From assembly GCA_000091205.1 (NCBI GenBank), contig AP006490.2: a DNA stretch of 64,000 nt; one strand, given 5' to 3'. The notes beneath the pieces were generated by a model. It was not told where the DNA came from, searched no databases, and saw nothing but the letters and a program-made list of their open reading frames with translations. The stretch comes from Cyanidioschyzon merolae. Its lineage: Eukaryota. This document shows, piece after piece, positions 16,573 through 49,580 of the stretch. Each line of letters begins with the position of its first letter. Positions within the stretch are counted from its first letter, which is position 1. The position numbers and the translations under genes were made by a program.

Positions 16573-16749
16573 AGATGCGCACGCCGCGCAACGGCGATAC
16601 CGCGGCTACTGTAAGCTGTCACTGCGCTAGAGTGCAGCTCGCAGGAGCTTCTGGGGAACGCTGTGCGTCGCTTTTTCCCATGATCAAGTCGTTTTCGTAG
16701 TGGTTCCTCGACTAAGAATAGGCTGCATCTAGCGAGAACGCTCTCTAGG

Positions 16750-29254: not shown

Positions 29255-29740
29255 GCGTCCACGATCGTAGTCGTCTTTTAACTTTATTCTATTCCACGTT
29301 CAAGTGAGTGTAAACAGATGCTTTTCGCAGTTTATAGCGGATACATACAAAGTGCGTTCAAGTTCATAAACATATCCTCATCTTGCGGACCATCGGGCGA
29401 AGAATAGCAATTGACGAAGAAGAAGACGGGAGATACACGAGAAAAGGTATTCGCCTAACGGGACATGGCTGAGATTGTAGTGGCACAATGGGCACGAGTT
29501 CTGGCAATCCTTGCAATGATCAGTTGCGCCAAAGGCGAAAAACGCATGGAGTTCGTGAAGTGAGACTTCAACGCCGCCATCAATAGCAGACGATGTGCGA
29601 TACTGAAGACGAGACCAGAGGAGCTGACGCAATCATACCTCATGGGGCAGTCTCTCAAGCTCGAAGTCTAAAAGGAGAATCTGGAACCTATAGCGAGGGG
29701 CCGGTCAAACAAGGCTGGCAGACGTGTGCGCGTGGGTATT
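29255..29740 (+). mobile_element. Internally deleted (MITE-like) derivative of the TnpB/Fanzor-like element, copy C
   Basis: About 200 bp homologous to the 5' leader and N-terminal coding start of copies A and B (ttcaagtga...cgcagtttatagc.ga...gcgttcaag). This joins directly to about 270 bp of the 3' end: KRMEFVK*DFNAAINSRRCAILKTRPEELTQSYLMGQSLKLEV*KENLEPIARGRSNKAGRRVRV, compared with [66 protein letters not shown] in copy B. Confidence 0.7.
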
Positions 29741-30475
29741 CATTAACAGCACATAGAAGTGGGTCATTTTTTGTTTCTCTGAACACATTGTATCTCTGTA
29801 CCGCAGTAATCGGCGCTTAAAAGCTCCGGTTCCTGCTGAGTGCATTCGCTTGCTGGCCGGCCGGCCAGCTCTGTGGTCCCATTATGAGCTACCCGACAAA
29901 CCCCTTGTCTCTTTGCATGTTTTCTATGTCCTTTCTAGCGGGAGCACGTTGTCTTGCCTACTTGTTGCAAGGACGCCTGCTCGCTCATACGGAGACTCTG
30001 GACGGAGGTGGGTCTGCATCTTCGGCCTCCGATCTCCTGTTTTTCATACGTCGTGGCATCATGGTCGACATTTTTAATGGCATCTCGTATTGCCGGACTT
30101 TTCCTTGGATCATGGGTTTCATTCAAGGCGCTGATCCCGTCGCTATCTGAGTCCATGTAGCCTGTATTCGCACAGGCACAGGTACAGGCGCAGCTCAGCA
30201 TAGCGCACACGCCAGCATCTTCGTGGCAGACAGAGAGACACCACCACCATTCATGGATTGTCTAACATCACTCGCGTTCGACAGCATCCAAGGCAAGCCA
30301 CGCCATGCGGCCGTGTCGTCGGCGTCGGTTTTCGTCGAGCGTGTATGCTATAACCGGAGTCGACATGTATCGAAATGTTCATTCATTCGGTTATCAATCC
30401 CACTTAACACCTGACCTTGCACAACACCAAGAATCAAGTTCTCATGTAGAGTCAAGGGGCCAGGTTCATGCTGTA

Positions 30476-31186
30476 TCATCGCAGCACGCGGCTCTCGCCA
30501 GTATTCAGAAGATTTCCATAACAGCGCCTGTAGAGGTCCACTTGACGCTCATAAAGTGCCGCAACAGCTGGATGTCGCAGGGCTTCGCGAAACTCGGCAG
30601 AACACAATTGTTCCAAGAAAAAAAGCGCAATCGGCTGGGACACGTGCTGCCGGTACGCCGGGTCCTGCCGCCAGCGCTGCAGAGTTGTGAGTCGTCTCTG
30701 CGCCACGACGTCGTCGAATCGACGCATCTGGCACAAATATGCCACATAAGACGGCGACGCAAGCGACTCTACCCAAGCAAGCTCCTCCAGAAAAGATGCC
30801 GCTGGCGGTATGCTCTCCAAAAACGACTCGTGCAAACCGCCCGAAGGCATCTCCTGTTGCTCCGTGTGTGCAACACCGGCAGCGGTGCTGGCGCTAGCGT
30901 CGGCACTGCCAACCAGCGAGGTGCTCTCCGAGCCCTCCCCCGCCTCGGGAGCAAGCTCCGCTGTCTTAGCTGCAAGTTTCCGTTTGCGTCCCGGCATTGG
31001 TGCAGCGTATCGAGCGGTTTCCTCAAGCGCCCAACCGCCAAAGCTGGCAGGTACCGATACGAAACACGGAGTGTGTCCGCTATCGTCGGCTAAGCGTTGC
31101 GCTTCGCCACCAGTGATCGTCAGATCCCGTGCCAAACCCGCCCAACAAACGCTGCAGTCCAGGAAACAAAGACACAGACGCTGCAA
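30476..31186 (-). CDS. MED31: Mediator subunit MED31/SOH1-like; the true start is probably internal at MPGRKRK (about 30997)
   Basis: RFLESIPPAASFLEELAWVESLASPSYVAYLCQMRRFDDVVAQRRLTTLQRWRQDPAYRQHVSQPIALFFLEQLCSAEFREAL follows the MED31 pattern RFxxELEFVxCLAxPxYxxxLAQxxYFxDxxFxxYLxYLxYWxxPEYxxxLxYPxCLxxLELLQxExFRxEL. Confidence 0.55.
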   Translation of the reverse strand: MQRLCLCFLDCSVCWAGLARDLTITGGEAQRLADDSGHTPCFVSVPASFGGWALEETARYAAPMPGRKRKLAAKTAELAPEAGEGSESTSLVGSADASASTAAGVAHTEQQEMPSGGLHESFLESIPPAASFLEELAWVESLASPSYVAYLCQMRRFDDVVAQRRLTTLQRWRQDPAYRQHVSQPIALFFLEQLCSAEFREALRHPAVAALYERQVDLYRRCYGNLLNTGESRVLR

Positions 31187-31633
31187 CTATTTCCCCTGAT
31201 CAACAGATCGTTCACATGAACTACCCGGAGTCACGAAAGCCGGGACAGCGATCCGCTGCGCACGCTCGAGCACGCCACCCGCGCACACATCGCAGGAGCG
31301 CGCGGACACGTGTCTGCGCTGCCTCGCAAACTGCGGCAGCCGCAACGGCCGTCAGCGCGATCTCCCGCGTCGATTCGCGAGCATTTGCCTTGCATCAGCG
31401 GCTGTGCTGCTGCTGCTGCTGCGCGCCGTCGCCGTGCACCGCCACGAGCAGCCAGCGCACGTCGCGTGCTGCGGCAGACGACGCACCTCGCGGGGCCAGC
31501 GCGCTCCATTCAGCAGCGAACACTGCGATTGGGGTCGCCTGAGCGCCTCCTGGAAGTGTGTGCTTCAGTGTTCCCTGGACTGGTGTCGTGCACCTGTGAT
31601 CACTTGGGTTCTCGGTGAGCTACTCGTTCGTAA

Positions 31634-32515
31634 ATGGTTTTCGTTACATCTGCAGGTATAGCAGCCGCAAGGTCTGGGTGCTCTTGGTTCGGTGCCGCTC
31701 GTTCACCGGCTGCGTTGAGACGTACTGTGTGCAGTCGACGACCTCAGCAGCTGTTGGCGTCAGCGTACCCGGGCTCACGACCACCGCACGCCCACGAGGC
31801 TGTCCATCACGACGGTGCGCATCGGCCTGGCGAGCGAAAAGGTTTCGTACAGGAGATGCGGGTTGTCGCCATGCGCCTACACACGAAAGATCAGGCGCGA
31901 GAGGGGAAGCAGGAGGAGTCAGCACTGCCTATCACGGAATGGCGTCCGACGCGCGCCGACTTTTTGCAGTTTTTGGTGGACTCCAAGGCAGTCTATGATT
32001 TTATGGAGGGTTATGTGGCCGGTGAGGCCTCAAAGGGAAACCCACTCTTCAAACCTTTCGTGAACACGGGCCTGGAACGCGGTCAGGCGCTGGCCTCTGA
32101 CATTGCCTGGTTCCGCGACGAACTCGGCTATCAAGTACCCGAGCCGACCGAGGCAGCGCAGCGTTACATAGACTATTTGCGAGGTCTCTTCGAACGCAGT
32201 CCAGAGGCCGTGCTCTGCCACTGGTACAATTATTACTTCGCACACACCGCTGGTGGTCGAATGATTGGACGGAACATGGAGAATATGCTGTTTGGCGACG
32301 GGCCCAATGCAAAGCGCTTCGAGTTCTACAAATGGGAGCGAGACGTCAAACAGATCTTGGATGAGGTACGTGAGCGAATTGATGAAGTAGCCAAGGATTG
32401 GCCCCGGGAAGTCAAGGATGCATGCTTGAACGAGACCGGCCTCGCTTTCGCGTACAGTGGAACCATTCTAAATAATCTCGCGAAACGCGCCGAGGAGCCG
32501 GCACCAGCATCGTGA
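31634..32515 (+). CDS. Heme oxygenase, plant/algal/cyanobacterial type (HY1/HO1-like), with an N-terminal extension (possible organellar targeting peptide)
   Basis: Near-collinear match to plant HO1: EMRVVAMRLHTKDQAREG...WRPTRADFLQFLVDSKAVYDFME...GLERGQALASDIAWFRDE...YIDYLRGLFERSPEAVLCHWYNYYFAHTAGGRMIG...RFEFYKWERDVKQILDEVRERIDEV. The stop is TGA. Confidence 0.85.
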   Translation: MVFVTSAGIAAARSGCSWFGAARSPAALRRTVCSRRPQQLLASAYPGSRPPHAHEAVHHDGAHRPGERKGFVQEMRVVAMRLHTKDQAREGKQEESALPITEWRPTRADFLQFLVDSKAVYDFMEGYVAGEASKGNPLFKPFVNTGLERGQALASDIAWFRDELGYQVPEPTEAAQRYIDYLRGLFERSPEAVLCHWYNYYFAHTAGGRMIGRNMENMLFGDGPNAKRFEFYKWERDVKQILDEVRERIDEVAKDWPREVKDACLNETGLAFAYSGTILNNLAKRAEEPAPAS

Positions 32516-33355
32516 AAGTTTATCGAACCTGTTTGTGCGTAAAACGTAGTTTTTGTATGTATGGTCGCTGTTTGGCATCCGGGTCCCTCACAAAGTCTCG
32601 GAGCGGTCGCGTATGATGCACCGCCAGCGCCGTGAACCCGCTCGTTGCCCGGCTGCGGACAGCGCGTCGGCACTGCTTGCCGCATGCACGCCAGCAAGAC
32701 GAGCTCGACGGGCGCCTGCGAGACAACTCCGTAAAAGCGCGCTCTGCACTATGAGAGACAAGCGCACGACGTCCATGACACCAAATATGATCTGGTACGC
32801 GGGGATCGAGTTTCGTCGCTGACCACGAACGAAGCATTCCCGGTGCGATCTGTAAATGGAACAGCTAGGAGATGCCCGCAGACGCTCCGTTGACGAAGAC
32901 GCGTATATTAAAGAAGACCATGCGATCCTGCTGGTCATCGTGATCGTGCGTTCTGTGCTTCTGGTAGTGACGAGCACAGCAGGCGCAACGCCTCCGCTCA
33001 GCTAGTTTTCCATCGTTCCAGTGCGGCAGCATCGTATATGGCATCTTCGCTACTGGCGCTGCACACACGCCTGCGATCTGCTCTACTGAAGAGTCCGCGA
33101 GACGAACGAAGCAATCGCGGGATATGCGATGCCTGTCAGCATTCAGTTAATCGACGACCGCTGCACATCAGACTTCGTACGTGCCGAGAACCCGGGGCAA
33201 GACTTGCCTTCGTGGATCACGATGCAGCGCGGGAGCGCTCCTGAGGCACGGCACGCGGGACATCCGCGAACGCATCCATGGTGTTGTAGGGGGCAGCCAA
33301 CCGCCATGCGGTATCGAGGATACCGCTGCGCCGATGGACAAGTCCAAGCGAACGT

Positions 33356-34792
33356 TTACACAGAACCGTTGAATGCCGGGGTCTCCTGCGAGCCTGCCTT
33401 GGCCATGCGCCAGACGTCGTCGCCTCGAGCGAGCAACTCTATCAGGTGCAGGCCGCTGGGCGTCTCCACGATGCCACTCAGTTGGCCGGGTTCCAGGTTG
33501 CGAACGGCTCGTTCGAATTCTGCATGCATCTCACCGGGCCCAAAAGGACGTATCCGACCGCCGTATCGGCTGCTTTTGCAATCGCTATGCTGCAAGGCCA
33601 GCTGTTCAAACGAGACGAGTCCGCTTTGTATCGTTTTCTGGAACTTGGACAGAAGGGCCCGCGCTTCCGCTTTACTACGCACAATGGGGTGGCCCTTCAG
33701 GTCGCTAGGGTTTCGTGATCCGGTATGCTTCAACAATATGTGACGAACATAAAAGACATCGTCCGGTGCCCGAGTCGCGTTCGACTGGGTCGCATCTGTG
33801 TCGCCACCGGTGATGCCGCTCGCGGGTGATGCCTGCTGCTCCGGACAGCGGCGACCGAGCAGCTGAATCAGATGGAAGCCAGACGAGGTCTCCACAACGT
33901 CGCTGATATCGCCGGTATGTTTCAGCTCCAGAAACGCCACTCGGGCAAATGGCTCCTGCATGGTTGTGTAGTCAAACCAGCCCAGGTCGCCACCTCGTTT
34001 GTAAGAATTACAGTCTGATTCGATTCGAGCGACCTCCTCAAAGCTTGCTTCCCCGCTGAGAATGTGTTGCCTCAGAGACTCAATCACAGCGCGTGCCTCA
34101 TCTCGGCTAATGCTCACTGGTTGTCCGGTGCGCTTGGATACCGGGTTCCGCACGTCGCGATGTTTGATAAGGATATGGCGAGCGCGCACCTGTCCAGGAA
34201 CTGGAGCCGCCGCAGTGCTCTCCGCAGGCGATTGACGCTCTGGAGCGCCACCAAGCCGAAGCCTCACGTATTGGGAGCTAGACCCGAACTCTATACGCGA
34301 GCCTTCAGCGATTACAAGTGGCTTAAGCGGCTCAACTTGTTGTCCACGTACTCGCGTGGCCCCAGCGCCCAAGTCGATCAGATAAAACTTTCGATGTTCG
34401 CGGTGAAATGCGACGGCAGCGTGGAGCGCTCCAACGTCAGACGCGTCCGCGAGAACAATGTCAACTGCAGTGGCCTTTCCTTGGCCGTTTCCAACAAGCA
34501 GGTAGCCCCGATTCGCCGGAAAAGGAACTTTGCGGACCCGCTCGTTGCTCTTTTGAGTGTAAACGTCTAGACGTGCGCCAGACGGTGCAGCCCCTAGCCA
34601 ACGTGGTTCTTTAAAGGTAGGTTGGGCTTTTACACCAGAAGCTTTGCGAGCAGCTTCCATAGTCTTTCCGTGCGACTTACCTCCCTGAGCGAGCGCGGTT
34701 TCGCCAGCGCTTTGTTTCCCTCTGTAGTAGACACGACCCACCGGTTTGATAAAGTATACCGCTTCTTTGCTCCCAAAGGTTTCCACGAACAA
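33356..34792 (-). CDS. FHA-domain protein with two tandem parvulin-type PPIase (rotamase) domains
   Basis: FHA-like N-terminus (GYLLVGNGQGKATAVDIVLADASDVGALHAAVAFHREHRKFYLIDLGAGATRVRGQQV). Two PpiC domains: RHILIKHRDVRNPVS...SDCNSYKRGGDLGWF...SGFHLIQLL and RHILLKHTGSRNPSD...SDCKSSRYGGRIRPFGPGEM...SGLHLIELL. Confidence 0.8.
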   Translation of the reverse strand: MFVETFGSKEAVYFIKPVGRVYYRGKQSAGETALAQGGKSHGKTMEAARKASGVKAQPTFKEPRWLGAAPSGARLDVYTQKSNERVRKVPFPANRGYLLVGNGQGKATAVDIVLADASDVGALHAAVAFHREHRKFYLIDLGAGATRVRGQQVEPLKPLVIAEGSRIEFGSSSQYVRLRLGGAPERQSPAESTAAAPVPGQVRARHILIKHRDVRNPVSKRTGQPVSISRDEARAVIESLRQHILSGEASFEEVARIESDCNSYKRGGDLGWFDYTTMQEPFARVAFLELKHTGDISDVVETSSGFHLIQLLGRRCPEQQASPASGITGGDTDATQSNATRAPDDVFYVRHILLKHTGSRNPSDLKGHPIVRSKAEARALLSKFQKTIQSGLVSFEQLALQHSDCKSSRYGGRIRPFGPGEMHAEFERAVRNLEPGQLSGIVETPSGLHLIELLARGDDVWRMAKAGSQETPAFNGSV

Positions 34793-34799
34793 CTAGAAC

Positions 34800-35374
34800 G
34801 CTGTAGTCTCTACAAATGCGCCCTTGAATATGGAACCTTTCATTGCTACTGAAGTCAGACAGCCGAGCTTTTGGTGCCACAGCTCGAGACGGCTGCGTGC
34901 ACCCCTCTGTAACGCAGGCGTCGTGCCGCCGAACGCTACCCCAGCGAAGTGCGAGCTCGTGCGCACGGCTTTAGCGCCTTTTGCGGCAAACTAGGTGCGC
35001 TGGTCTCGACGCTCACCTTGGGCTACGTCGACATTCGAACGATATTCATCCTTACTGCCGCTGCTGCCGTCATCGGTTTCCTGGCGACGTTCATCTTCCT
35101 TCCGGATGCAACCGGGTTGGATCTGCGCGAACATGACTGGGAATGGGACCTGACTCTTCGTAACCACGCTGAGCTGTACGGCGGCGAGGCCGCCAATCTA
35201 CGACATCTGTCGCTCTGCGAACGCTGGCAAGGCAGAGGCAAACGCTACACGCCGCACTGGCGAGCCCAGTTGCGCAAAGAGGAACGTTCAAGTGATGCAG
35301 CGGCAACCAAGCTAGCAACACCGCCGATCGCGGCGAGCACCCTCATACCGTCTACTGCTCCTGACAATCGCTGA
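34800..35374 (+). pseudogene. 3' fragment of a PHO84-like MFS inorganic phosphate transporter (frameshifted remnant)
   Basis: The C-terminus RARAHGFSAFCGKLGALVSTLTLGYV...IFILTAAAAVIGFLATFIFLPDATGLDLRE matches PHO84 TRYRSTAHGISAASGKVGAIIAQTALG...IFALFMLLGIFTTLLIPETKRKTLEE. Upstream, PLNMEPFIATEV (matching GPNTTTFIVPGE) lies in a different frame. The N-terminal roughly 400 aa of a transporter are absent; the adjacent parvulin gene ends at 34792. Confidence 0.55.
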
Positions 35375-37154
35375 GCATCGAGCGAACGATCCGGTACGAT
35401 GATACGGAGTATGGATGCCGTGCGCGTTGTAAAGGATCAAGTGATATCTATTGACGCTGAGCGAAAGCGTGAGCGACGTACAACTTGACACTTGGGCGCA
35501 GCAGCGCGACGACACGAGCCATGTTCCCGTTTCGAAACGCGAGCACAGCACGAAGGTATCAGCAGTACCAGCGGGTGACTGCGGTAGAACGAGCACTCGC
35601 GCTGCCTGGCAGCGTCTCGCGCATCGCATGGAACTGGAACTCGTGCGTTGCGTTTACGACGAAAGCGCTACACCTGGATCCACCTAAAATGGAATAGGTC
35701 TCATAATTTGGACGCGCTCTCTAAAGCTCGAGACTGTTTCCACTGCCGCCAACACTAGTGTGTGCGGGGATTTTCTGCAACAGCGCCCGTTTGCTCTCTC
35801 TTATTTCAGATTTTAGATACGCCCGTCTCTCCTTTCTTTGCGGCTCCGATGTCAGCAGTGAAAGCACGATGGCGGTAGCGTCAGCATCCCGATTCGGACG
35901 CTTCTGGTTGTTTGCGACGCATTGCGTTCACGGACGGGAGATGCAATCTACGGTTCGCTTGCCATTTCGAGCCTCTTGGTATGCAACTTCTGTGCAAACT
36001 CTCTAGCTGTGGCACTTGGTTGTGGTCAGGCCCTCCCGAATGCATGTGTCAGACCTGCCCGTGCTCCGAGCGCTGCTGTGTCGCGCGTCCAGGCTCGCTG
36101 CGTCGCTCTGTTCATACCCCTTCGGATCCAGAAGGCTCCATTGGATGCTGTTCTCGTTTTCAACGCTCAGTGCTGCATCCAACGATCTGGGGCTTCTTCT
36201 GAGTGATGTCCTCCGGGAGTATTCTGTCTGGTGCACGGGCGGTTGCAGGCTATTCCCGCTGACCGAGGATGTATGGAACGTGATGAATTCCATCATAAAT
36301 CGAATACCAAAAACAAAATCCAGGCTGGAGATCATAAGCACAAGTGTCTGCCCGTCACCGTTCCCATTGTGCAAAGCGATGAAGACGCTCTCCGCTGGAC
36401 CCAGTGGATGCGATGACTCAATTCCGAAGACAAGAGCCTTTTCGATGCAAACAGAAGATACGGAAGCGTTTGGGAGCGTGTCACCCGAAATGCAGCATGC
36501 CGGTGCTGTCGAATGCAGTTGTGTCACTGGTCACAGCCACAGGAGGGTTTGTCTTTCGAACGCAATCGAATATTTGGGTGAGAAACTCAGGGACTTTTCG
36601 GCTTGAGCTGGCGAAGAACGCATCCTGGAATGACGCCCCGTTTTTTGATTCCCCTTCAATCCCACATCGCCTATAACGTTCCTTAGCGAGAGATCCATAA
36701 AATTAAAGCACGCGCGATTTGAACATCCTGCACATAAGGAACGGAGAAGACCGGAGGCTTATCCATATGGACTGACGATTGATATCCTTTGTTTCACGAA
36801 AACTAGTTCGAAGGAGGCGTGAAACGTCCTCATTCCGGCCACGTACCGAATTCCAGCGGCAAAGCGTCGAAAGAGCCACGTCGAACAGCGTGACATGAAT
36901 CCTGAGGCTACTTGTATGCGTCCGTAAGCTGTTACTTTTTGCACGTCGAAAACCGACTTTGCACATCTAAATTTTCGTTCGAAAAATACTCCGAGATGTA
37001 GGAACAAAGCACAGCATCCCGTGGTGCACTTCACTCGGATACGTATGAAGCGTATGCCGCTCTTCGACGAACGCTAGCTCAGCTTGTCTGCTGCTTGCTG
37101 ACCTCGAGGCGACCAGTGAGCGCCTCGAAGCACTCGAGTTGTCACGCCTAGGGT

Positions 37155-37796
37155 ATGGGAAGCACGCAGGATGTGCTTTTGATGAAACGTGAACTTCGAA
37201 AGCGCATGCGGGAGCTGCTTCGGCAGGTGTCAAGGAACGATTTGCGAGAGCGTTCCGCGGAAGCCTGCCGACAGCTCACCAACTCGGAGGTGTTTCGGTC
37301 TGCACGAACTGTAGCGGCATTCTGCCACATGCCGACTAGCGAAGTGGAGACGACTGATTTGCTTGCCGCCTGTTTTGCTGAAGGGAAACGCGTTTTTCTG
37401 CCCCGTGTGGATGAAGGATCAGTGCGAAAGATGTTGTTTTTGGAGGCCCACGGTCTGCAGGACGTCGAGAGCTGGCCCCTGAACGCCATGGGTATTCGGG
37501 AGCCGCCTTCTACGTGGAACGGACAAGTCAGAAGAGAAGTGCGCACGCTGGTTGAGCGAGAGCGAAAACCTCTCGACCTCATTGTCGTGCCCGGACTCGC
37601 CTTTGACACGTTCGGTCGTCGACTGGGTCGCGGCAAGGGCTACTACGACACCTTTCTGGCGACGTGTGAGCATTTGCATCACGAGATGCAGCTTCCTCCG
37701 CCTCGAAGAGTTGGTCTTGCGCTTTCATGCCAGATGGTCACCGAGGTGCCGGTATCAGCACATGATCAGGTCGTGGAGGCAGTCTTTTACGCTTGA
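37155..37796 (+). CDS. 5-formyltetrahydrofolate cyclo-ligase (MTHFS)
   Basis: LRKRMRELL...RSARTVAAFCHMPTSEVETTDLLAACFAEGKRVFLPRV...DLIVVPGLAFDTFGRRLGRGKGYYDTFL carries the family signature GxGxGYYD. Confidence 0.85.
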   Translation: MGSTQDVLLMKRELRKRMRELLRQVSRNDLRERSAEACRQLTNSEVFRSARTVAAFCHMPTSEVETTDLLAACFAEGKRVFLPRVDEGSVRKMLFLEAHGLQDVESWPLNAMGIREPPSTWNGQVRREVRTLVERERKPLDLIVVPGLAFDTFGRRLGRGKGYYDTFLATCEHLHHEMQLPPPRRVGLALSCQMVTEVPVSAHDQVVEAVFYA

Positions 37797-38726
37797 GGTG
37801 TCCGGCCATACCATGGAACGCTATGGCAAACGGGCACGCAGCTATAGCCATAGACGCTCGTACGCGCGCAAGCTTGACGATGAACGATAGCCCCGGGAAG
37901 CGCGAGCGTAAAAGCACTGACTCGGCACCGTGCACGATACAGATACCGCTGAACCTATTCATCACTGCATCGAAGCCGCAAGGCGAACTTTATCCGATCA
38001 AAACGATTGCTGAAGACTGCATGCACGACTAGAGGAGCTAGATGAAGGAACCTCTTCTGCAGGTGCATGCTCGCACTGCGTCCTATGCTGAAAAGCAGAT
38101 CCACCAACAATTCATGGGGAAGCGTACATTGCCACTGAGCACTTCACTATCCGAAAGCATCCTTCGGATGGAGTCCTTTGCCAAAACCGCGACACGACAG
38201 AGCGCTGATGGCAATCATTTCAGAAGCGTGATTATTTGACGTATGTGCGTTGCCGCGACAATAGAGCCGGCTAGGTTCGGGGATCTGGTATCATCGTAAA
38301 GAACGCAGTGCAATTCTGTGTCTTCGCGCATTGTTTTGCCCCGGTGGCATTGCACAAAGAAGTCCCTGCGTCTGAGGCAAGGCCTCGGGGTACACGCTGC
38401 ACCCGGGTCTCTGATGCCAGTAATGCTGGAGTGCTGCACTGCAGCGCACACAGGCTCACCCCTGGATGCAAAAGGCGCGTGTTCCTCGCAGCGTTTATGA
38501 TGCGTTTTCCCAAACCATGCGACAGTTTATCAAGGCCGCATCCAGAGGGCATGCACAGTCTGCGTTCCTTCAAGTATCGGGATTCTGCTGGCATAGACAC
38601 AACCACGCATCCGTGCGTACAGAGCTGGTGGTGCGATCGGTATTCGCCCAGGTGCCTCAGAGGCTGTGCAAGGCTCTCCCGCGCTCAACCATTCCACCAC
38701 CTGCCATCGTTGCGCCATCGGACTCA

Positions 38727-40007
38727 TTACAGCGCCCAGTCCTCTTCATCCAAATCAGATTCATCATCTTCTTCCTGGTCTAGTGATGCGATATCGATTT
38801 GGTATCGCAGAATACCTCCAATGCCACCAAAACCTTTCACGAACTGACTGCCCTCTGCGGTTCGATCTGTCACCAAGTCCAGATGTGCTCCGAATCGCTT
38901 GTAGTTTTGCGCGAGCCAGTCCACCAGGGACTCTGACTCTTTGATTTCCATGTCTGGTCCGCCGTCCTTGGCCGTATCACTCGCCAACTGATCCAGCTTC
39001 TCCTTCTGAACGATCCGCACAGTCTCTTCGCCCGACTGTGGGTTCATCAAGACAACACGGTCATACTCGAGGTTCTCCCAGACAATTAATTTCTCTACTG
39101 CGCCCATTTCCAGCGCCTTCATGGTATCGTCGACCCCGTAGCAATATTACCCAGTATCCAGTGCGATCTGGTCATAAAATTCCTTCAAAAGCCGCTTCTC
39201 ACGTACATATTTCACGTTTGACAGACTGTCAGCAGCCAGTTCAATCGCTTGATTGAGACCAACCTCACCGCCCTAGCTGATATCTACGACCGCGATCACT
39301 TTGGCCTGTAGACGGGGGTCGAACAGGTCGCTGCGTGCGAGCTCATTCTTAAAGTCCGCGGAACCAGCCAGCACGATGCCGCTCACATTAACTTTGTCGC
39401 CATCGGGAATAAAGAGCCGCACCGCATCTTCGCCAACACGTCGTAGATAGTTATGCCGTTTTTCCATGCGGAGACGCGCAAAACGGAGCGCGGACTGACC
39501 ACCTCGACCATGCTTCTTCGGCAAATCGACCGTGAAACGATGCAGAATCTCGCGCGTATTCCCCGAAAGTACAGCGGAAAGCGCCCCATTCCCGTCGATG
39601 ATGATGAACCCGAACTTTTCATCACCTTCAAGCAGATTCATCAGTGGTTCTACGTGGAACCGCGAGTCGCAATAATACAACGACGTGTTGATCGGCTTGT
39701 GTGCCTCGAAGTCGATGGTCACTTGTTTCTCGCCCTTGTCCGTTAGAACAGTCCCACAGTAAATTGCTAGACCGTTCGGTGGAACTTTGTTGTAGAGCTT
39801 AAGGCGCTGTTGCGTAGATGTGATAGCAGACAACACGGAAAGTCGGTTGACACGGGACTTGATGTTGGGGGCTGTTCCCGCTTCGTCTGCGAGAAGTTTC
39901 CCAACCTTTGCAACTTGGTCGCCCGGTGGAATCAGTAACGAAATCATGGACGTGCCGTTACCACGTGCTGCCTCCAAGCCTTTGAGCAGTTTTTTAATGC
40001 GGAACAT
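38727..40007 (-). CDS. Eukaryotic peptide chain release factor subunit 1 (eRF1), interrupted by two in-frame stop codons (TAG at 39273-39275 and TAA at 39147-39149 on the minus strand) with the frame fully preserved
   Basis: Track ORF 39273..40007 covers domains 1 and 2: [17 protein letters not shown] in [17 protein letters not shown] in [17 protein letters not shown]. Track ORF 38727..39122 covers the C-terminus. Between them, hand translation in the same frame reads ...[76 protein letters not shown]... This matches the canonical DISYGGENGFNQAIEL...[28 protein letters not shown]. The total span is 426 codons, as expected for eRF1. The terminal stop is TAA. Confidence 0.85.
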
Positions 40008-40607
40008 GGTTACCGCCCGATCCTCATCGTCCTATTCGTGGTTGTTCGACGGCAGTGCGGCGCCCACGGCAGCAGCAGCTACCGTCGTGATGGATGCCAT
40101 GCTTAGCGGGAAAGCACACGAACGCGACTCTCTGAACGCGTAAAAAGTAATCTCTATGCGATGAAGGCTTTTTGCTCTGCCTAAGAGTCACCCTGGTTTT
40201 AACGCAACAGCACCACCAGTGCTAGACAACGCGTAGCCGAACACTGCTGCCACCCGGTGAGAAGACCCTGGGTCGAGCGCGCATTGTGGCAGCCTTCGCC
40301 GGCGCGCCGCATCATCACAACGTCTTGGGAGAAGAGCGCTTTTCACACAGTGCTTCAGGATGTTGTTCGGTATAGCAGAGACCTGATTGCGGTAGGGAAT
40401 CGAAACAGGTTTCCAAGCGACAGCTTGAACGGCACGGTTCTAGTTCGACAGTTGCACGCAGCCTGCTGCGTTAAAAGCGGAGGAAAGCGCTTTTTCGCTT
40501 GGAGCAGGATTTGCTGCCTGTTGCAGCGAAAGAAGATTCGCTGAAAACGACGCTTTGGGCTAGCGTTCTATCGCCGAACTGGTGTTGTTGCAACGAGTAA
40601 ACTCAGC

Positions 40608-41651
40608 ATGCGGCTATTGTTGCAGCGTTGGAGCCAAACGATGCGGCACGGGAGCCGCAACGCGCTCGGGATCGTGAGGCTGCGATCCTTTCCTGGTTGC
40701 CTCTCTGGGTCGGAAAGTCGATCACACTGGAGGCCAGTCACGGTATGGAGCACGTGTGCAGCCGTCATCGCGGCGAGCTTAGCGAGCGTTCAACGCCCGG
40801 AATGGCGACCGTGGCTCTGCTACGCTGAGGCGTCCACCTCGCTAGAAAGTACACACAACTTCACGGCTGCTACGGAAAAAGTTGCACCCTTGAGCGATGC
40901 AGCGGAACCGGCAACAATACTGTGGAAACAACTGCCTGACTCGCTTGCAGAGCTGCGCAAGGCCGACATCGTGCTTTACCAATATGAAACATGTCCATTC
41001 TGCAATAAACTCCGGGCCTATCTGGACTATTGGCGAATACCGTACAAGGTTGTCGAGGTGAATCCAGTAGGCAAGAAGGAGCTAAAATTCAGCTCCTATC
41101 GCAAAGTACCCATTCTGGTGGTGAACGGCACACAACTCAACGACTCTGCTGCTATTATCAAAGCACTGGCGCGCATCACGGACCCGGACCGTGCGTTAAA
41201 CACGCAATGGTTCGACTGGATCGACTCCTGGTTTGTGCACACCTTACCACCAAATATATACCGCACCCGTCATGAGGCGCTGGAAACGTTTGACTACATC
41301 ACGGAAAAGGAGAAATTCTCGCCGTGGCAGCGCTTCACGATTCGCTACGTGGGTGCTGCGGCCATGTATTTTGTGAGTCGCCGCCTCAAGAAGAAGTATC
41401 ATATCGTCGATGAGCGCCAAGCACTCTATGATGCATGTCGTGACTGGCTCCAGGCTGTCGGTTGGCCAGAACGTCGTTTTCTGGGAGGTGCACGACCATG
41501 TGCTGCAGACCTGGCCATGTTTGGCGTCCTTCGCAGCATCGAGGGTTTCACAGCGTTTCATGAGCTCGCGGCCAATGTGCCGGAGATCGTTCAATGGTAT
41601 CGGATCATGAAGGACCAGGTGGGTCCGTCTGCGCGCATTGATTCGATGTAG
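40608..41651 (+). CDS. Prostaglandin E synthase 2-like protein (glutaredoxin plus GST-C fold)
   Basis: VLYQYETCPFCNKLRAYLDYWRIPYKVVEVNPVGKKELKFSSYRKVPILVVNGTQLNDSAAIIKAL, ...NIYRTRHEALETFDYI..., ...ARPCAADLAMFGVLRSIEGFTAFHEL. This is collinear with vertebrate PTGES2 ([34 protein letters not shown]...KFSSYRKVPIL...LNDSSVIISAL...NVYRTPTEALASFDYI). Confidence 0.85.
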   Translation: MRLLLQRWSQTMRHGSRNALGIVRLRSFPGCLSGSESRSHWRPVTVWSTCAAVIAASLASVQRPEWRPWLCYAEASTSLESTHNFTAATEKVAPLSDAAEPATILWKQLPDSLAELRKADIVLYQYETCPFCNKLRAYLDYWRIPYKVVEVNPVGKKELKFSSYRKVPILVVNGTQLNDSAAIIKALARITDPDRALNTQWFDWIDSWFVHTLPPNIYRTRHEALETFDYITEKEKFSPWQRFTIRYVGAAAMYFVSRRLKKKYHIVDERQALYDACRDWLQAVGWPERRFLGGARPCAADLAMFGVLRSIEGFTAFHELAANVPEIVQWYRIMKDQVGPSARIDSM

Positions 41652-42375
41652 AAAAGTTGCCGAATTTTCTGGTGAACTGATTACCTGCAGAACGCAAAGA
41701 ATGGAATTTTTTATCTATTTTGATGGATTGAGGATCGAAAACAATGCAGTGTTGCGTGTTGAACGCGAACGGCACAAAGAATGCAACGTTATCGATCTGG
41801 ATTGATTGTGGGTCTGGGCTGCGCAGAACGGTCTGGAAGATAGACGAGTCACCTGTGAGCACCCTCCATATCCTGAGCAAAGTACTTCGTCATCCGTGGC
41901 GAATCGTGTGCATATCTTGGATTTGTCATATGGGCAATTTTGATTGGTAGCCTGGTGCATTGCTGGTACACGTCATCCACCGAGATGCTTTGACTGTCTC
42001 ATACCAACAACCCATTCGCAAGAACGCACACGGCATCGTGTTTTGTTCCCGTAGCGGGAACTTCCGGTAGTAACCTCAACTGAGGAAGGAGCCGCTCGCT
42101 CGTGCTGCGCCCAAACCTCCAGCTGGGCATCATCATTTTTCATATCTCTGTTCAGTGCGACGAGCATGTAAAGGCAAAACTCATCAGAGATAGGCAGACG
42201 AACTAGGCACTTCCCTAGTAGCGAGGACTCTCGTTTAAGACGCCGAGTTGCCGGTGCGTCCTGCAACGTGCACCAGCGCTGTTCTCTATCGCCATCCGCT
42301 GGCTCACGCGGTACACCCAAACCTAGTCTGCGGGAAACTTACGCAAAGTTTCCAGGATCATAGCTTTGGGGCTCC

Positions 42376-42693
42376 TCACTCCCGAGTCGCGCTGTGCGTG
42401 ACCTCTTTTCGCTGGGTTGGCATCCCCAGCGACCGAACGAGGACGACGTTTTCGCCTTTGAGGAGGATCGTCCCTAGAGCAACCGTCCGCCGCTTATGCT
42501 TTGCAGTACTTCCCCACTGCTCCACGGTGTCGACCAGAACTAGATTGGTGTGTTCGTCGAAGCCGCGCAAGGTGCCTTCCAGAGAGTATCTGGTGTTTTC
42601 GAATAACCAGACCTCAACGCGGGCTTGTTGGCGCGCCAGCGTTGCTAACAACTGCTCTGGAACTATCCGTCTGTCCAGAGCGTCCTTCGGCAT
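42376..42693 (-). CDS. Sm-like (LSm/Sm) small nuclear ribonucleoprotein
   Basis: Sm1/Sm2 motifs: VEVWLFENTRYSLEGTLRGFDEHTNLVLVD ... LGTILLKGENVVLV. Confidence 0.7.
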   Translation of the reverse strand: MPKDALDRRIVPEQLLATLARQQARVEVWLFENTRYSLEGTLRGFDEHTNLVLVDTVEQWGSTAKHKRRTVALGTILLKGENVVLVRSLGMPTQRKEVTHSATRE

Positions 42694-43305
42694 CTATGTT
42701 CACCACTTAAGTTGGCTGCAGGCGTGCAACCAGGGGATTTTGCCTGCTTTTCACGGTTTGCTCGGGAGCAGATAACAGCGCGAATGCCGAAGCGAACAAC
42801 GTTACGTCAGCGCAGCAAACCCGTTTCGCCACAATATCGTGTACATGAATATCCACCCGCAGACGTGTCTCAGCCTTTTCTTACAGGGTTCTGGTATCGG
42901 TTTCAGTTTCTCCATATACACTCCGACGCTGTGAGGCTGCCCAACAAAGTTAGCTTGCCGCAGCGCTGCGTGCCTCGCATTCAGCACAAGCATCTCCTGA
43001 TATTGATACCAGCGTTGAGGTCTCGGTTCATGGACTCCATGCGTTTGTTGCCGCTGGTTGATCTCACCAATGATAGGAGACCAGAACTCGTGTACGCTGT
43101 GCCATTGGGTGCTCTGTCAGCTCTTCGTGCTGATTTGTCGACGAAATGCTCCGCTGGCCTCGCTCCAACTCAACGTCCTAGGGTGTATATTCCAGCTCAT
43201 CCCTTCGATTTTTCGAAAATGAACGCATTTGCTTATAGCCTGAGATGAGAACCTTCCCGCATCGAGCAGCACATGCGGAATAAAGACCAAATGTGCCCCG
43301 GTTGG

Positions 43306-44173
43306 TCACCATGTGCTGAACGCTTCATCAATTCGCCCGGTGGAGCGATCGTGACGATTCAGGACCCCAAACTCTCCTTCTATGGGGATGAACCACGGGT
43401 GACAAGAAGGAATGAAACCAGCTCTACCCCTCGATAGAATTGGCAAGTGCTCGAACTGAAGCAGAACGGCTGAATACCACTGTGTCCAATAGAAGGACCT
43501 TACCAGACGTTTGGGACAAGTCTTCAATGACTCGACAAAAAGAGGGCGCTGCTGCATGAGTGTTCTCTTCAGCGGAACTGAGGCAGCCAAATGAATCCAC
43601 CGCAGCTAGAACAGATGATGATGTCGACGTTCTCTACGATTTCGAGCGTACGAGCAACGGGCTCCCGCTCAGCAAGTATTCATCTGCGCTGCGATTGTCT
43701 CGTTTGAAGCAAGTCTCATCGAGTGAGAAAATAAACTGATGTTCCTGTGCTTCATACCGATCGCGACGTTCCAGGAACGCCGTGCCTGCGATTTCGGTGG
43801 AAGCTGGCCGTGAATGAACTAGCACTTTATTGCGATTGGATCCCGGTGTTTTCAGGATCACGCGAATAAGCTGTTGAGAAACAGAGACGCCCGTGGTGGC
43901 TACTATGGACGCATTTGCTTCCCGTAAATTGATCAACTGGTCGTTTTCTATCACTGAGTGCAGGCAGGCTTTGAGAATATCAGGTTTCGGCCCGGAGCGC
44001 ATATACTTGTTTCTTTCAGTGCTCGTCAAGCATCTGCGTATAGTGGTATGATTGACATCGAGGAGCAACGCAATTATCATTGCATTGTTCAGTGAAGAAT
44101 ACATATGCCGTATGCAATTCCTCCACAATCTATACAGAACATTACCTAGTGATTTCAACCTCCTCCTACACAC
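43306..44173 (-). mobile_element. Degenerate Tc1/mariner (IS630-Tc1-mariner) DDE transposase relic
   Basis: ORF 43634..44173 has an HTH region, then GPKPDILKACLHSVIENDQ...RPASTEIAGTAFLERRDRYEAQEHQFIFSLDETCF. This resembles the Tc1 segment PGRKP.L..K...ARL.FA..H..W.......V..SDE..F. ORF 43306..43590 (different frame) has WTQWYS...FIPSCHPWFIPIEGEFGVLN, resembling the C-terminal QSPDLNPIENLWGEL region. Frames are broken and there is no intact DDE triad. Confidence 0.45.
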
Positions 44174-44712
44174 CGCAGCCGCGATGAAAGAAAATTGAGT
44201 TGAAAGACTATCAACCGAAGCGCCTTTACGTCGTAACAGCGTCTGGTACTCGAAATTCTAACGCAGCCACGTACCAGCAGCGGATCGAGACGGTGAACGG
44301 ACGCACCAGCGTATACCTCTATGTACGGTATTCGCCTCTACCAGATACGCAGCATGCCTGCGATCAATGCGAACAGGCATCGAAGTGCCCTTGGTACCCA
44401 AGTTTTGCCGTCCGAGCATGCCTTCCTCGAAGACGCACCTTGCATCTATCCTCAGATCGTCGAAAACGACACCAAACATGCTTCTGCACAGCGTCCTGTC
44501 GTACAAGCGCGCCAAGTAGGCGTTTGTTTTCAGCACGGTGCTGTCTGACGCTTGGACTGCACGAGTGTAGATGCTACCGATCCCGACCAGGTCCACGGCA
44601 CCTGATAGCTGACGAGCAGGTTCCGCTGCGACTCCAAGCCCGGCAATTGGCAAGCACACGAGTCGCGCTCAACTTGCAGAGCGCTGTGTCGATCGCCGAT
44701 GCTGCCCTTGGT

Positions 44713-46599
44713 CTAACGATTCAGAGTGGCAATGTTGACAGCAGGCACGCGCCGCTGACGCACAGCTTGAGGATCGCTTCGATTCGAGACCACGGCGACA
44801 ATACGCGACCATTTCAGCGCACCGAATGCGACTTCTCCGTCACTGGCCTGCAGCTCAACTAGGCGTCGTGCAACGCGCATCTTAGCTTCCAGGACCTCGA
44901 GGGAAGCGTCCGTCGGGTCGCAGAGCCAATCCACAAAGCCCGCCATACTAGCCAACGCGACAACTCCGATTCTCGACAGACCTAGCGCAGCGAATACCGC
45001 CGCAGCAGCGAGCCGCTCTTCTTCCGAAGGATGCCGTGCACAGTCCAGGACAATGGGCAGTGCATTCGTGAACGCCTTGACGGGATCCGCATCCCTGATC
45101 GCATCAGTGAACAGATGCAGCACCCTTTGCTGCCGAAATTCGAGGTCGGATTCGGCGGCTCCGTACCCTGAGACGGCTGCTGATGAAAGCGGCTCGTCGA
45201 GACCTGCCAGGAACACACTCAAAGCACGCAAGGAGGCCACTCGAATATCGCACACGCTCGCCGTTTGAATGAAACGAAGCGTTAGTTTCAAGGTGTCAAC
45301 GTCCGCAAGCAGCACGTCCATGCCGCGTTCACAGAGCCCCAGAGCGCCAACCGCGGAGATCAGATGCACCAGCAGTGTCGTCCGACGAACTTGATCAAGT
45401 CGTACGGACCAGTGTGCTGTCTCAGTCTCGCCATCTACCACGTGAAGCAAGAGAAAGCGCCCAAGAATCTCTACGAGATTGGCGTTCATCCAAGCGTGGA
45501 AGGCGCAACGACTGGACCCGGCACTGGTGCGCACGAACCTCAGAATCCCACACATCCAAATAAACCAGCGTTCCGCCAAGTCGCTCGAGGCAGGCTCGTC
45601 TGGCGCCAACAAATGGGCAAGGTGTTGGCGTAGCAGCACATCGAATACCGAAATTTGGTCGAGCAACTCGGCTGCTATTGCACTGCGTTGCATAAAAGCC
45701 CCAAGCACATCCAGCAAGTTCAAGCGGAGTAGCAAGTCCTCATCCAAACGAACAGGAGCTGCGATTTTGGCTACAAGCACGGTTGGCAACAGCCGACGTG
45801 CGGCAATCTCTGCAACAGACGAGTAGTCGCAGATCTCAAGCAGGAAGCTCAAGGCTCGGATATGCGCGACCGCACCCGCTGCACCCGAGAGCATCTCCTG
45901 TACGAGGATTTGCGCGCCTCGTGCTTCGCTGAAGAGCACAACTGCGCCGCGGAACGGCTTCAGCTGTACCAGGTTCTTCAGGATTTTTTCACAAAGTCCC
46001 GCAGCTTCGGTGGATGGATCATCACGGAAGCTCAGCAGCACCAGTGACAGGATATCGCTGGCGTGCTGTGCAGTTGTGCTGGGAGCGTCCACTTCTGGAC
46101 CTGGCGCTTGTGCGGCCTCTATCTCCGGACGAAGCTCGTTCGTACTTTCAAAACGTTCGATAATGGTGTCTGCAACTTGCTGACAAAACGCTTCAGGCAA
46201 GTCATTCCGTTCAAGAAGGAGACAAAGCAGACGGAGCGCAGCTGTGCGTACCAGCGGGTACCGGCTGCTCAGACCGAGCTGGATGAGCTGGAGCACCTGC
46301 TCTGTAGGTACGACGTGACGAACTCGGGCACTTGTTGCAGAGAGCTTGACCAGTTTCTCCATTGTTTTCGTTAATACCCGGATGGAATCAAATATGTTGT
46401 CGGATGGTACCGCGTCGCTGTCTGAAGCCTCGAGCGACGCCCGCACCGCGTACTCCTCCAGTGTCCAGCCCAGCAGCGGTAACGGCAAACGCTCCAGCAA
46501 GTCCAGTGCCGCACACTCCGACAGTGCTCCAGCGTCTACATATTCCCTCACTGTATCCAATACTTTATCGGGAGTCCAGTCATTGTGGTGAGCGTTCAT
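44713..46599 (-). CDS. Hypothetical protein with predicted HEAT/ARM-like helical repeats
   Basis: 628-aa uninterrupted ORF. It is Leu/Ala-rich with an amphipathic repeat character. No diagnostic motif recognised. Confidence 0.4.
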   Translation of the reverse strand: MNAHHNDWTPDKVLDTVREYVDAGALSECAALDLLERLPLPLLGWTLEEYAVRASLEASDSDAVPSDNIFDSIRVLTKTMEKLVKLSATSARVRHVVPTEQVLQLIQLGLSSRYPLVRTAALRLLCLLLERNDLPEAFCQQVADTIIERFESTNELRPEIEAAQAPGPEVDAPSTTAQHASDILSLVLLSFRDDPSTEAAGLCEKILKNLVQLKPFRGAVVLFSEARGAQILVQEMLSGAAGAVAHIRALSFLLEICDYSSVAEIAARRLLPTVLVAKIAAPVRLDEDLLLRLNLLDVLGAFMQRSAIAAELLDQISVFDVLLRQHLAHLLAPDEPASSDLAERWFIWMCGILRFVRTSAGSSRCAFHAWMNANLVEILGRFLLLHVVDGETETAHWSVRLDQVRRTTLLVHLISAVGALGLCERGMDVLLADVDTLKLTLRFIQTASVCDIRVASLRALSVFLAGLDEPLSSAAVSGYGAAESDLEFRQQRVLHLFTDAIRDADPVKAFTNALPIVLDCARHPSEEERLAAAAVFAALGLSRIGVVALASMAGFVDWLCDPTDASLEVLEAKMRVARRLVELQASDGEVAFGALKWSRIVAVVSNRSDPQAVRQRRVPAVNIATLNR

Positions 46600-46679
46600 T
46601 CAGCAACAGGTTATCACGCTTTGAGATAGACATATCCAGAAGCAATCTCCTGATCGGCGGCGGGGCGCAGGACAGCCGC

Positions 46680-49580
46680 TGCGCGTGCACGCGCACCTGG
46701 CAGATCCGGCGGGCACGAGACACGACGCTCTGGTCGCTCCTGAGGGGAACAGTGATCCTGATCATTGGCGTGCTATTCTACTGTAAAAGTTGTATTCGCG
46801 TTGAGGTCGTAGCAAAGTATAGGTTTTCTGTTCCATCCTATTCCGACCCTCAATTGAGTATATTCAAGTGTTTTTTCGAAGTAAATAACAGAAGCGTTCA
46901 AAGAGCGTTCGTTTTCATAAAAAATTAAAAGGAAAGGCATGGAAATGGAAGTGGAGGATCCCGGAGGGCCGATATCGCCGGCTCTCGGAAAAGAAGGATA
47001 AACATGGCGGAGCAAAGAGGAACAGGAAGTGATGAAGAATCAAAAGGGGGCGAGGTTCTACGTCGAAGGCGGCAAGAAAGGCAACTGTACGGCGATATTG
47101 TAGTGAAAGCCTGTGTTCTTAAATATATCAAGGATCCGTAGAAGGAAAAGTTGCCGGACGCCATCAAAAACCGTCTCGAGTCGTACTCCATGAGTATGAT
47201 AAAGGCTTCTTCAGGACCGACGCATTTGGTGAGGGAGATGTATCGCTACGTGACGAACATGGAAACGGTCGAGATTCCGGACGAGTTTTTCGACAACACA
47301 TTTTTTCGTCACTTGATGCTTGGCACAGGGGAAGAGCGGAAGGATATAAGAGCTAGTGCATGCCCCTCACGAACAACATCCCTTTTGCAGGTTCGAGGGT
47401 AATCGAAACAAGGGGGACTGGGGTATTTACGACTATGGGGCGATGAAGTACATCACGAACCTGAAGAACCATTTGAAAACGAACCTCGAACGTTTCATGA
47501 TACGCGCCGTGTTTGCACTCTACCGGGGCCTGTCTCGCAAAGGAATATGGGCGATTATCAATGGCATCACGAACGATCGAAACTATGGAAATGAGGTCGA
47601 ATTCGTTGACAAGAAGGAGTCAAACCAGAGCACGAATGAGAATTCCGTCATCCGTGCGGTTATCGAAGAGCATCGTGCGGTACTGGGGCTGGCGAATCCA
47701 ACAGACAAGATATCAGAGTTGAAAAAAGATAGGGAAAGATACGATCGCCTCGTTCTGCGCTATTTTGTGTTTCTGGACCGAGAGCTCGAACGCAAAGCGG
47801 AGATGAAGCTGAGTGAAGAGACAAATGAAGAGTGGGAGAGACGGAAGGCTTTCCTAATGGGTAAGCGCTTCGACGTGGTTCCAATGTGCAAGATCAAGTC
47901 ACATTTTATGACTATCGACTCCGGCGTCCTTTACGGCATCATGAGGGAGATCTGTCCGGAGTTCGATGTAAGGAAGACAGAGTTCCCCGGTGAAAACCGT
48001 GAGACGTACTGGAAGAATATCTTCGATTTCAAACGTCGCAAAGTCAGCAAACAAAAGGTATTCACTGGGTTGATCGAAACCGAAAGAGTAGCCTTGTGTA
48101 TACACTATCGGAGGTTGAAGAAAGATCGGCCAGTCCCTCCCTCGGCTGCGTCCGTCACGAAAAATGAAGAAAAGGAGGAGGCTGGTCCTGCGAAGCAGGA
48201 GGTAGAGGATAACGACCTTGTCGTTCACGCGGCGAAGAATGAAGAAAAGAAGGAGGCGGGTCCTGCGACGCAGGAAGTGGAGGGTAACGACCTTGTCGTT
48301 GACGTGACGAAGGATGAAGAAAAGAAGGATGCGGATCCTGCGACGCAGGAGGTAGAGAATAACAGCTTCATCGTTAACGCGACGAAGCATGAAGAAAAGA
48401 AGGAGGCGGGTCCTGCGATGCAGGAGGTGCATGAGAAGGACCTTCTCGTTGGCGCGGCGAAGGATGAAGATGAGAAGGATGCGGATCCTGCGACGCAGGA
48501 GGTAGAGAATAACGACTTTATGGTTGACGTGACGAAGCATGAAGAAAATGAGGATGCGGGTCCTGCGACCCAGAAAGTGCAAGATAACGACTTTGTCGTT
48601 GGCGCGGACCCTGGGAATACGAATATCATCACCATTGCAGCACCGAAGCGTGCGGAAGATCGTACTGACGGCAACTTGCGTCAGAAAGACATGCGTCTTT
48701 TGAGGTTCTCGAGAGCGAGATACTATCGAGAATCGGGAATCATGAATGCGAGGAAGAAAATCGAGACTTGGAATTCAGGAATGAAAGAGCACCTGGAAGC
48801 TGTGAGCGAGGTAACGAGCCGAGGAGCGGACTTTGAAGCTTTTCGGAAATTCATGGAAGTTCGTGTTGCGCATTGGGATGCTCTGTGGGAGGAGTATACC
48901 AAGCCCCGGTGGGCTCGACTGCGTATGAATCTATACGGTGGGAGGCAGCGCGCATTCCCAAATTTTTTCAATCAGTTGAGTGCCCTGAAGGAGGATGAAA
49001 GTCAGAGGCTCGTAGTAGCGTACGCAGCAGGGCGCTGGAAGACCCAAAAAGGGACTACTCCGGCCCCAACGACAAGAACGTTCAAGGAGTGCGCAAGGCG
49101 TTTCGTTACGATACCTGTAGATGAGTTCCGAACGTCGTATACGCACCATGAACTGGGGTGTACACTCCAGAGGGTGGAGATGGAAAAGTGCCAGCGGAGC
49201 CCTGAGGACACAGCAAAGCACGGACTGCTGACGGAGGAGCAAATGGAAAGGATGGCAAAAGTTCGTGGACTGCTTGCATTAGTGAGTACAACCAGTGATG
49301 GTAAGAAACGTATGGAATTCGTGAACCGTGACTTTAACGCCGCTATCAATATACGGAAATGTGCGGTGCTGGAGAAGAGACCTCCAGAATTGACAGGAGA
49401 GAATTTCGTTGGACAACCTCTCAAAGTCGAACTATATGAGAAAAAGTTGGAGGCAGTTGTAGGCGGCCGGTCGAGAAAGGCTGGGAGGCGTCTGCACGTC
49501 AGGTAAAGAGTTTTGTCTAAGGCGCCGGTCGTCTCAACTGTACACTGGCACCATCGCCGGTGCATTCGACAGATGGTGTC
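46680..49580 (+). mobile_element. TnpB/Fanzor-like element, copy B; most intact copy
   Basis: The left leader is homologous to copy A from about 46680. An N-terminal ORF (ATG about 46994 to TAA 47402) contains one in-frame TAG and then a 1-nt insertion relative to copy A. That insertion shifts into the main 716-aa ORF 47356..49506 (GTG start as listed). A conserved non-coding tail of about 70 nt follows the stop. Confidence 0.75.
47356..49506 (+). CDS. TnpB/Fanzor-like RuvC-fold nuclease (IS605 OrfB superfamily), core ORF of copy B
   Basis: RuvC-I: [18 protein letters not shown]. TSxxC-like: [15 protein letters not shown]. RuvC-III hallmark: [21 protein letters not shown] (RDxNAAxNI). There are six to seven 26-aa tandem repeat units ([22 protein letters not shown]) immediately N-terminal to RuvC-I. 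Confidence 0.75.

Follow-up and report, generated by a model that had tools for sequence, protein, structure and literature searches.

An eRF1 gene with three in-frame stop codons on chromosome 8 of Cyanidioschyzon merolae is probably a young duplicated pseudogene

The bacterial gene prfB is interrupted by an in-frame stop codon; it carries a conserved slippery site and a Shine-Dalgarno-like stimulator, is decoded with a +1 frameshift, and is the only gene for RF2. Eukaryotic cases have also been described in which stop codons and the release factor eRF1 act on each other. In plants an autoregulatory loop of eRF1 that works through readthrough and nonsense-mediated decay (NMD) is established (PMC5397192), and in yeast sup45 nonsense mutants are viable through readthrough feedback and gene amplification (PMC8701342). 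An earlier note on the DNA analysed here, a 64,000-nucleotide stretch of C. merolae 10D chromosome 8 (the window), had described an eRF1 gene with in-frame stops and offered three explanations: a recent pseudogene with a second copy elsewhere, errors of sequencing or assembly, or a release factor that depends on readthrough of its own premature stops. The locus is like prfB in that an in-frame stop interrupts a release-factor gene, but the slippery site, the stimulator, the frameshift and the status of sole gene are all absent from it. Plant eRF1-1 is like what the note proposed in that the abundance of eRF1 feeds back on its own mRNA via readthrough; however, the plant circuit is a conserved one that relies on the ordinary stop codon, placed in a leaky context, and on an NMD-inducing 3'UTR, whereas the stops in C. 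merolae are internal, non-conserved and non-leaky (PMC5397192). With the yeast sup45-n and sup35-n mutants the locus shares premature stops in an eRF1 coding sequence, the idea of readthrough feedback and a change in release-factor copy number, but yeast has no source of eRF1 other than the mutant allele and depends on readthrough and amplification for viability, whereas C. merolae has an intact paralog and the copy with the stops carries damaging missense changes too (PMC8701342). The viable sup45 nonsense mutants are also described instances of internal stops in an eRF1, of which the note had known none (PMC8701342).

Unprocessed pseudogenes that arise by segmental duplication offer a further comparison. 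The locus is like them in having an intact parent elsewhere, co-duplicated neighbours, nonsense changes and changes at invariant residues, a raised pN/pS and lesions that vary between strains. It is unlike the typical duplicated pseudogene in that the window copy is free of indels, that three nonsense changes exceed expectation at ~1% divergence, and that it lies in a genome of very low redundancy. We consider it very likely, at a probability of roughly 0.93, that the chromosome-8 eRF1 is a young, unprocessed duplicated pseudogene with a functional copy elsewhere. The first of the three explanations is thus the one that we retain, on the strength of a paralog on chromosome 13, the partial and derived nature of the duplicate, relaxed constraint, and stops that vary between contigs.

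Chromosome 8 is 739,753 bp long according to Table 1 of the finished-genome paper (PMC1955436). Reading the minus strand of the window from 40007 to 38727 confirms that the TAG at 39275-39273 and the TAA at 39149-39147 lie in frame, without a frameshift and with the NIKS and GGQ (HGRGGQS) motifs retained, and the Pfam domains eRF1_1, eRF1_2 and eRF1_3 follow one another in order across the stops with E-values of 3e-23 to 5e-44. Other particulars of the earlier description change once the gene is aligned to its 457-aa relatives: the start moves from 40007 to an ATG at 40100, 31 codons upstream, which gives 457 codons as in the relatives; the internal stops become three instead of two, the third being a TAG at 40034-40032; and the two stops first described are separated by 41 codons and not by 42 (Table 1). 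In the closest relatives the residue aligned with codon 23 is Gln, Leu or Asn. The gene ends in TAA-TGA, and we considered whether the TGA might be the real terminator but rejected this, as the relatives end at the same residue as the TAA; judged by that alignment, the terminal TAA is the genuine gene end.

A codon-usage scan scored 40 codons either side of each stop in all six frames of the window. The strongest two-sided coding signal of all in-frame stops belongs to 39275 and the third strongest to 39149, and in the whole window the scan found no other coding region that is interrupted by in-frame stops. The accessions of the flanking 5-formyltetrahydrofolate cyclo-ligase (FTHF; BAM79867.1) and glutathione-S-transferase-like gene (GST; BAM79868.1) are consecutive, so no eRF1 protein was deposited from this locus, and a literature search found no published description of a C. 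merolae eRF1 pseudogene.

Table 1. Coordinates of the eRF1 copy, its lesions and the surrounding duplicated block, in positions of the window
Feature	Position	Strand	Remarks
Segmental duplication block	34919..49525	.	similarity to contig L008 stops sharply at either edge
Sugar-transporter C-terminal stub	34937..35323	+	about residues 502-632 (last ~130 codons); left edge of partial duplicate
FTHF, BAM79867.1	37155..37796	+	intact ORF in block
Probable eRF1 pseudogene	38727..40100	-	457 codons plus terminal TAA; 3 internal stops; without CDS annotation in the 10D record
TAA, codon 318 (K318*)	39147..39149	-	AAA (Lys) in relatives; same GGG TAA in L086, L087, L088
TAG, codon 276 (Y276*)	39273..39275	-	TAT (Tyr) in all related contigs; Tyr in 118/118 eRF1s
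F175S, codon 175, TTC -> TCC	39576..39578	-	common to other chromosome-8-type copies; Phe in 116/118 eRF1s
D159G, codon 159, GAT -> GGT	39624..39626	-	private to window; Asp in 113/118 eRF1s
P133A, codon 133, CCA -> GCA	39702..39704	-	common to other chromosome-8-type copies; Pro in 118/118 eRF1s
S78P, codon 78, TCC -> CCC	39867..39869	-	in TASNIKS stop-recognition motif; private to window; Ser in 118/118 eRF1s
TAG, codon 23 (Q23*)	40032..40034	-	CAG (Gln) in relatives; same TAG in JGI contigs L086 and L088
Start codon ATG	40098-40100	-	aligned to 457-aa relatives; 31 codons upstream of the 40007 ATG
Prostaglandin-E-synthase-2-like GST, BAM79868.1	40608..41651	+	intact ORF; paralog BAM80980.1, chromosome 13
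Sm protein E (SmE), BAM79869.1	42376..42693	-	intact ORF; paralog BAM80979.1, chromosome 13
CMH216C, hypothetical protein	44713..46599	-	intact ORF in block; paralog CMQ418C, chromosome 17
Transposon-like repeat	46689 to ~49525-49545	+	right edge of block; unannotated 716-codon ORF 47356-49506

Nine ORFs of the window have products identical to deposited C. merolae 10D proteins, including ATP synthase beta (BAM79854.1), RPS4 (BAM79871.1), FKBP, GST and CMH216C. ATP synthase beta and VPS35 terminate at TAA, RPS4, FKBP, GST and CMH216C at TAG, and other genes at TGA; because the exactly matching proteins end at TAA or TAG and other genes at TGA, the genetic code is the standard one, and the statement that TAG and TAA serve as ordinary terminators in this window, with ATP synthase beta and RPS4 as examples, stands. 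The same matches, together with the codon-usage scan, rule out TAA and TAG as window-wide sense codons. A reassignment of TAA and TAG, whether partial or genome-wide, could appeal to the YxCxxxF motif of eRF1, which in the Cyanidioschyzon and Cyanidium lineage has the unusual form YYCDSRF (39660-39680, minus strand, codons 142-148; also in contigs L001, L002, L004 and L008): only 2 of 118 eRF1s have it, the other 116, that of Galdieria included, having YLCDNKF. However, relatives that bear YYCDSRF use TAA, TAG and TGA as terminators, and the motif is a lineage trait that is separate from the decay of this eRF1. We give reassignment next to no probability, given that TAA and TAG close annotated genes of the window whose products match deposited proteins exactly, that same-motif relatives use all three stops, that there are no further in-frame stops across the window, and that the intact paralog has sense codons at the stop sites. 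A variant code of the kinetoplastid, ciliate or syndinean kind, at first suggested by the stops, is excluded by the alternation of gene strands and by the exact C. merolae matches. The window also contains no tRNA genes, and hence none for the suppressor tRNAs that the note had suggested looking for.

On protein-level evidence, C. merolae 10D has an intact 457-aa eRF1, BAM80981.1, on chromosome 13 (866,983 bp), deposited as 'eukaryotic peptide chain release factor eRF subunit 1 [C. merolae 10D]'. It sits in the 90%-identity cluster of the window eRF1's closest relative, differs from the conceptual product of the window copy at 9 of 457 codons, is canonical at Q23, S78, P133, D159, F175, Y276 and K318, and matches the solved human eRF1 with an E-value of 2e-188. 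By accession it is adjoined by BAM80980.1 and BAM80979.1, the paralogs of GST and SmE (Table 1). The chromosome 13 copy enters the comparison as a protein sequence, and near-identical metagenome contigs represent the DNA of the ancestral-type locus in what follows.

The order of genes in related species (contigs L001, L004/L005 and the Cyanidium-type L002) is LSM/SmE, GST, eRF1, FTHF, a full-length sugar transporter and a P-type ATPase. Three contigs that are ~98-99% identical to the window, L007, L008 and L009, have this ancestral order, and their collinearity with the window reaches no lower than 34919; in these, as in L004 and L002, a full-length sugar transporter is followed by the ATPase. 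In the window the transporter is a stub that abuts an unrelated Ess1-like gene, and the same arrangement occurs in L006, which is collinear with the window across the left edge (28736-44080). Because a transporter stub in the window stands against ancestral neighbours in L007, L008 and L009, the chromosome-8 copy is a partial, derived duplicate. Identity of the block to L008 is 98.1-98.9% over 34919-46688 and 95% over 46689-49525, the latter being the repeat, and on the right the homology to L008 stops at 49525, where the transposon-like repeat ends. We note that CMQ418C, the paralog of CMH216C, lies on chromosome 17 (1,232,258 bp), so that 10D may contain a third copy of part of the block.

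The stops themselves vary between contigs. L006, an environmental contig of chromosome-8 type, has an open frame with no stop and carries only P133A and F175S; L087 has one stop, K318* only; L086 has two, Q23* and K318*; L088 has the same two with P133A, F175S and E347D; and the window, from 10D chromosome 8, has all of the L088 changes plus S78P, D159G and Y276*, and thus three stops. At the sites of the stops L006, L003, L007, L008 and L009 have sense codons. The nested series of zero, one, two and three stops fits stepwise decay. A cluster of 10 sequences consists of 131-aa ORFs that start directly behind codon 318, and one of these ORFs occurs on 13 contigs. Since independent JGI contigs (L086, L087 and L088) carry them, Q23* and K318* are not base-call errors, and the note's suggestion of sequencing error falls for these two stops and retains a place only for Y276*, which among the contigs retrieved occurs in the 10D reference alone. 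As an explanation of the locus, base-call or assembly error in the reference could point to Y276* and likewise to S78P and D159G, which are also confined to the 10D reference among those contigs, but we think it highly improbable: the same codons recur as Q23* and K318* in independent JGI assemblies, the 131-aa cluster lies just beyond the last internal stop, the changes are all substitutions and not the indels typical of assembly error, and the finished genome sequence extends from telomere to telomere (PMC1955436).

Three observations on the contigs stand somewhat apart. At two of the stops there are double base changes close together, CAA/CAG to TAG and GGA AAA to GGG TAA, K318* having come with an adjacent synonymous change in the latter. 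Variants typical of one paralog or the other are mixed in some contigs: L007 and L009 have ancestral flanks but A133 and S175, and L086 combines Q23* and K318* with the D453 of BAM80981.1. Such mixed contigs could be the products of gene conversion or other real recombinants, or else short-read assembly chimeras between 99%-identical copies. Over 34919-44080, L006 differs from L008 at 81 positions and from the window at 121, and 86 sites are private to the window; that L006 is closer to L008 than to the window suggests either gene conversion between the two copies within strains or strain divergence on top of the duplication.

Comparison with the intact ancestral-type gene in L008 gives 14 base differences in 1374, all of them substitutions with no indel. 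Six are synonymous, five are missense (S78P, P133A, D159G, F175S and E347D) and three are nonsense (CAG to TAG, TAT to TAG and AAA to TAA), so that eight are nonsynonymous in all. We counted conservation column by column in an alignment of 118 diverse eRF1s, in which the Y276 column has Tyr in all 118, the K318 column has Lys in 109 and Arg in 8, and E347D falls at a variable column. The changes at the conserved positions 23, 78, 133, 159, 175, 276 and 318 are all derived, and six of these seven positions are invariant or nearly so. The sequence is therefore not the textbook eRF1 that it had been taken for: TASNIKS has become TAPNIKS, and P133A, D159G and F175S replace residues found in 118, 113 and 116 of the 118 eRF1s. 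Where a functional gene has an open frame and keeps its invariant residues, this copy has three stops as well as S78P, P133A, D159G and F175S. Between the window eRF1 and L008, pN/pS is 0.41, on the small counts of 8 nonsynonymous and 6 synonymous changes, against about 0.06 (0.059-0.062) for eRF1 between species, where synonymous sites are saturated and the true baseline is for that reason still lower. Constraint on the window eRF1 is relaxed, and the changes bear the mark of its loss. We also considered a mutation bias resembling RIP as the source of the changes, and rejected it because they mix transitions and transversions.

Two features run counter to a plain pseudogene reading. Nonsense changes make up 3 of the 14 substitutions, above a neutral expectation of ~0.5 (~3-4% per substitution; P about 0.007-0.013), although this test is biased because the locus was picked for its stops, and we treat it as weak evidence. 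In addition, eRF1 alone is broken in the block; the other four genes have accumulated 33 substitutions and no stops against ~1.2 nonsense changes expected, a difference that is not significant. It is possible, though we regard it as unlikely, that silencing of the copy was selected: an extra eRF1, or the P133A/F175S variant, would have been harmful through dosage or a dominant-negative effect, and nonsense alleles would have been favoured. This would refine the pseudogene reading rather than replace it. Both features speak for selected silencing, the former at P about 0.01, as does the fact that yeasts and plants change in phenotype when eRF1 is over- or under-expressed (PMC5397192). The ascertainment just described and the tiny numbers speak against it. 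Moreover, any stop after the first should be neutral, except where some product escapes through reinitiation at Met32 or through readthrough, and another strain (L006) still has an intact copy of chromosome-8 type. A more elaborate idea, to which we attach only a small probability, is that the chromosome-8 copy is transcribed and that its stop-laden mRNA, or truncated products of the N and M domains (e.g. residues 32-275), sense or modulate the efficiency of termination and NMD; the nonsense excess would then reflect selection on that role.

The immediate contexts of the stops are gaa TAG gac, agc TAG ggc and ggg TAA tat, and the sequence around them does not differ from the normal coding sequence of the intact copy. 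We take these contexts to lack known leaky features. They weigh on the third of the note's explanations, a programmed autoregulation in which full-length eRF1 would be made through its own premature stops under negative feedback. The retention of the frame without an indel is in keeping with such a circuit, and the viable yeast sup45 nonsense mutants show that feedback of this kind is physically possible (PMC8701342); however, the frame survives simply because the 14 substitutions have not yet been joined by an indel. Chromosome 13 carries an intact paralog, and this gene is not the sole eRF1 of the cell; the stops are not conserved, L006 having none, L087 one, and L086 and L088 two; the contexts (TAG-G, TAG-G and TAA-T) are without known readthrough signals; any readthrough product would be altered at invariant or near-invariant positions by S78P, P133A, D159G and F175S; and three stops in series multiply three small probabilities. 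We therefore see very little chance that this explanation is right, and recoding plays no part in the one we favour. The note had also remarked that the residues replaced by the stops it described, Tyr and Lys, are those that near-cognate tRNAs insert at such stops. This match is automatic and carries no information, because a single-base nonsense change arises only from a codon that one substitution turns into a stop, such as those for Tyr, Lys and Gln, and codons one step from a stop are by definition read by near-cognate tRNAs.

If the chromosome-8 eRF1 is a duplicated pseudogene, as we think very likely, then a block of ~14.6 kb comprising the tail of the sugar transporter, FTHF, eRF1, GST, SmE, CMH216C and the transposon-like element would have been copied into chromosome 8 from an ancestral locus that is now on chromosome 13. 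The canonical chromosome 13 eRF1 presumably supplies the cell's release factor, and the redundant chromosome-8 copy, freed from constraint, would have decayed through point substitutions. P133A and F175S, common to the open environmental chromosome-8-type copy, may have come first; K318*, Q23* and E347D are common to other contigs, and S78P, D159G and Y276* would be changes private to 10D.

For translation biology the consequence is slight, in that the locus is no natural case of a release factor dependent on readthrough, and an autoregulatory circuit of eukaryotic eRF1 is already known from plants (PMC5397192). The genomics of C. merolae gains a little from the locus: a pseudogene that lacks annotation, and a duplication of 14.6 kb, bounded by a transposon-like element, that links chromosomes 13 and 8. 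Three further duplicated genes in the block have annotations that treat them as independent loci. The case also carries a caution: when an in-frame stop is met in an essential gene with an otherwise intact frame, a paralog should be looked for first.

Lastly, the element at the right edge of the block lies in a genome whose features are described as unusually simple and whose transposons as very few; eight class II elements with weak similarity to bacterial transposases are mentioned for it (PMC1955436). By eye, a C-terminal motif of its 716-codon ORF suggested TnpB/Fanzor, an identity that found no support in sequence searches of Pfam, NCBIfam and the PDB. A second, diverged copy of the element, 78-83% identical to the copy at 46689, is present at 4767-7513, and the element contains internal 75-bp tandem repeats (48153-48607 and 6193-6572). 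Elsewhere in the window, a 773-bp direct repeat whose two copies are 99.2% identical (12098-12870 and 15802-16574) flanks CMH199C (13670-14914).
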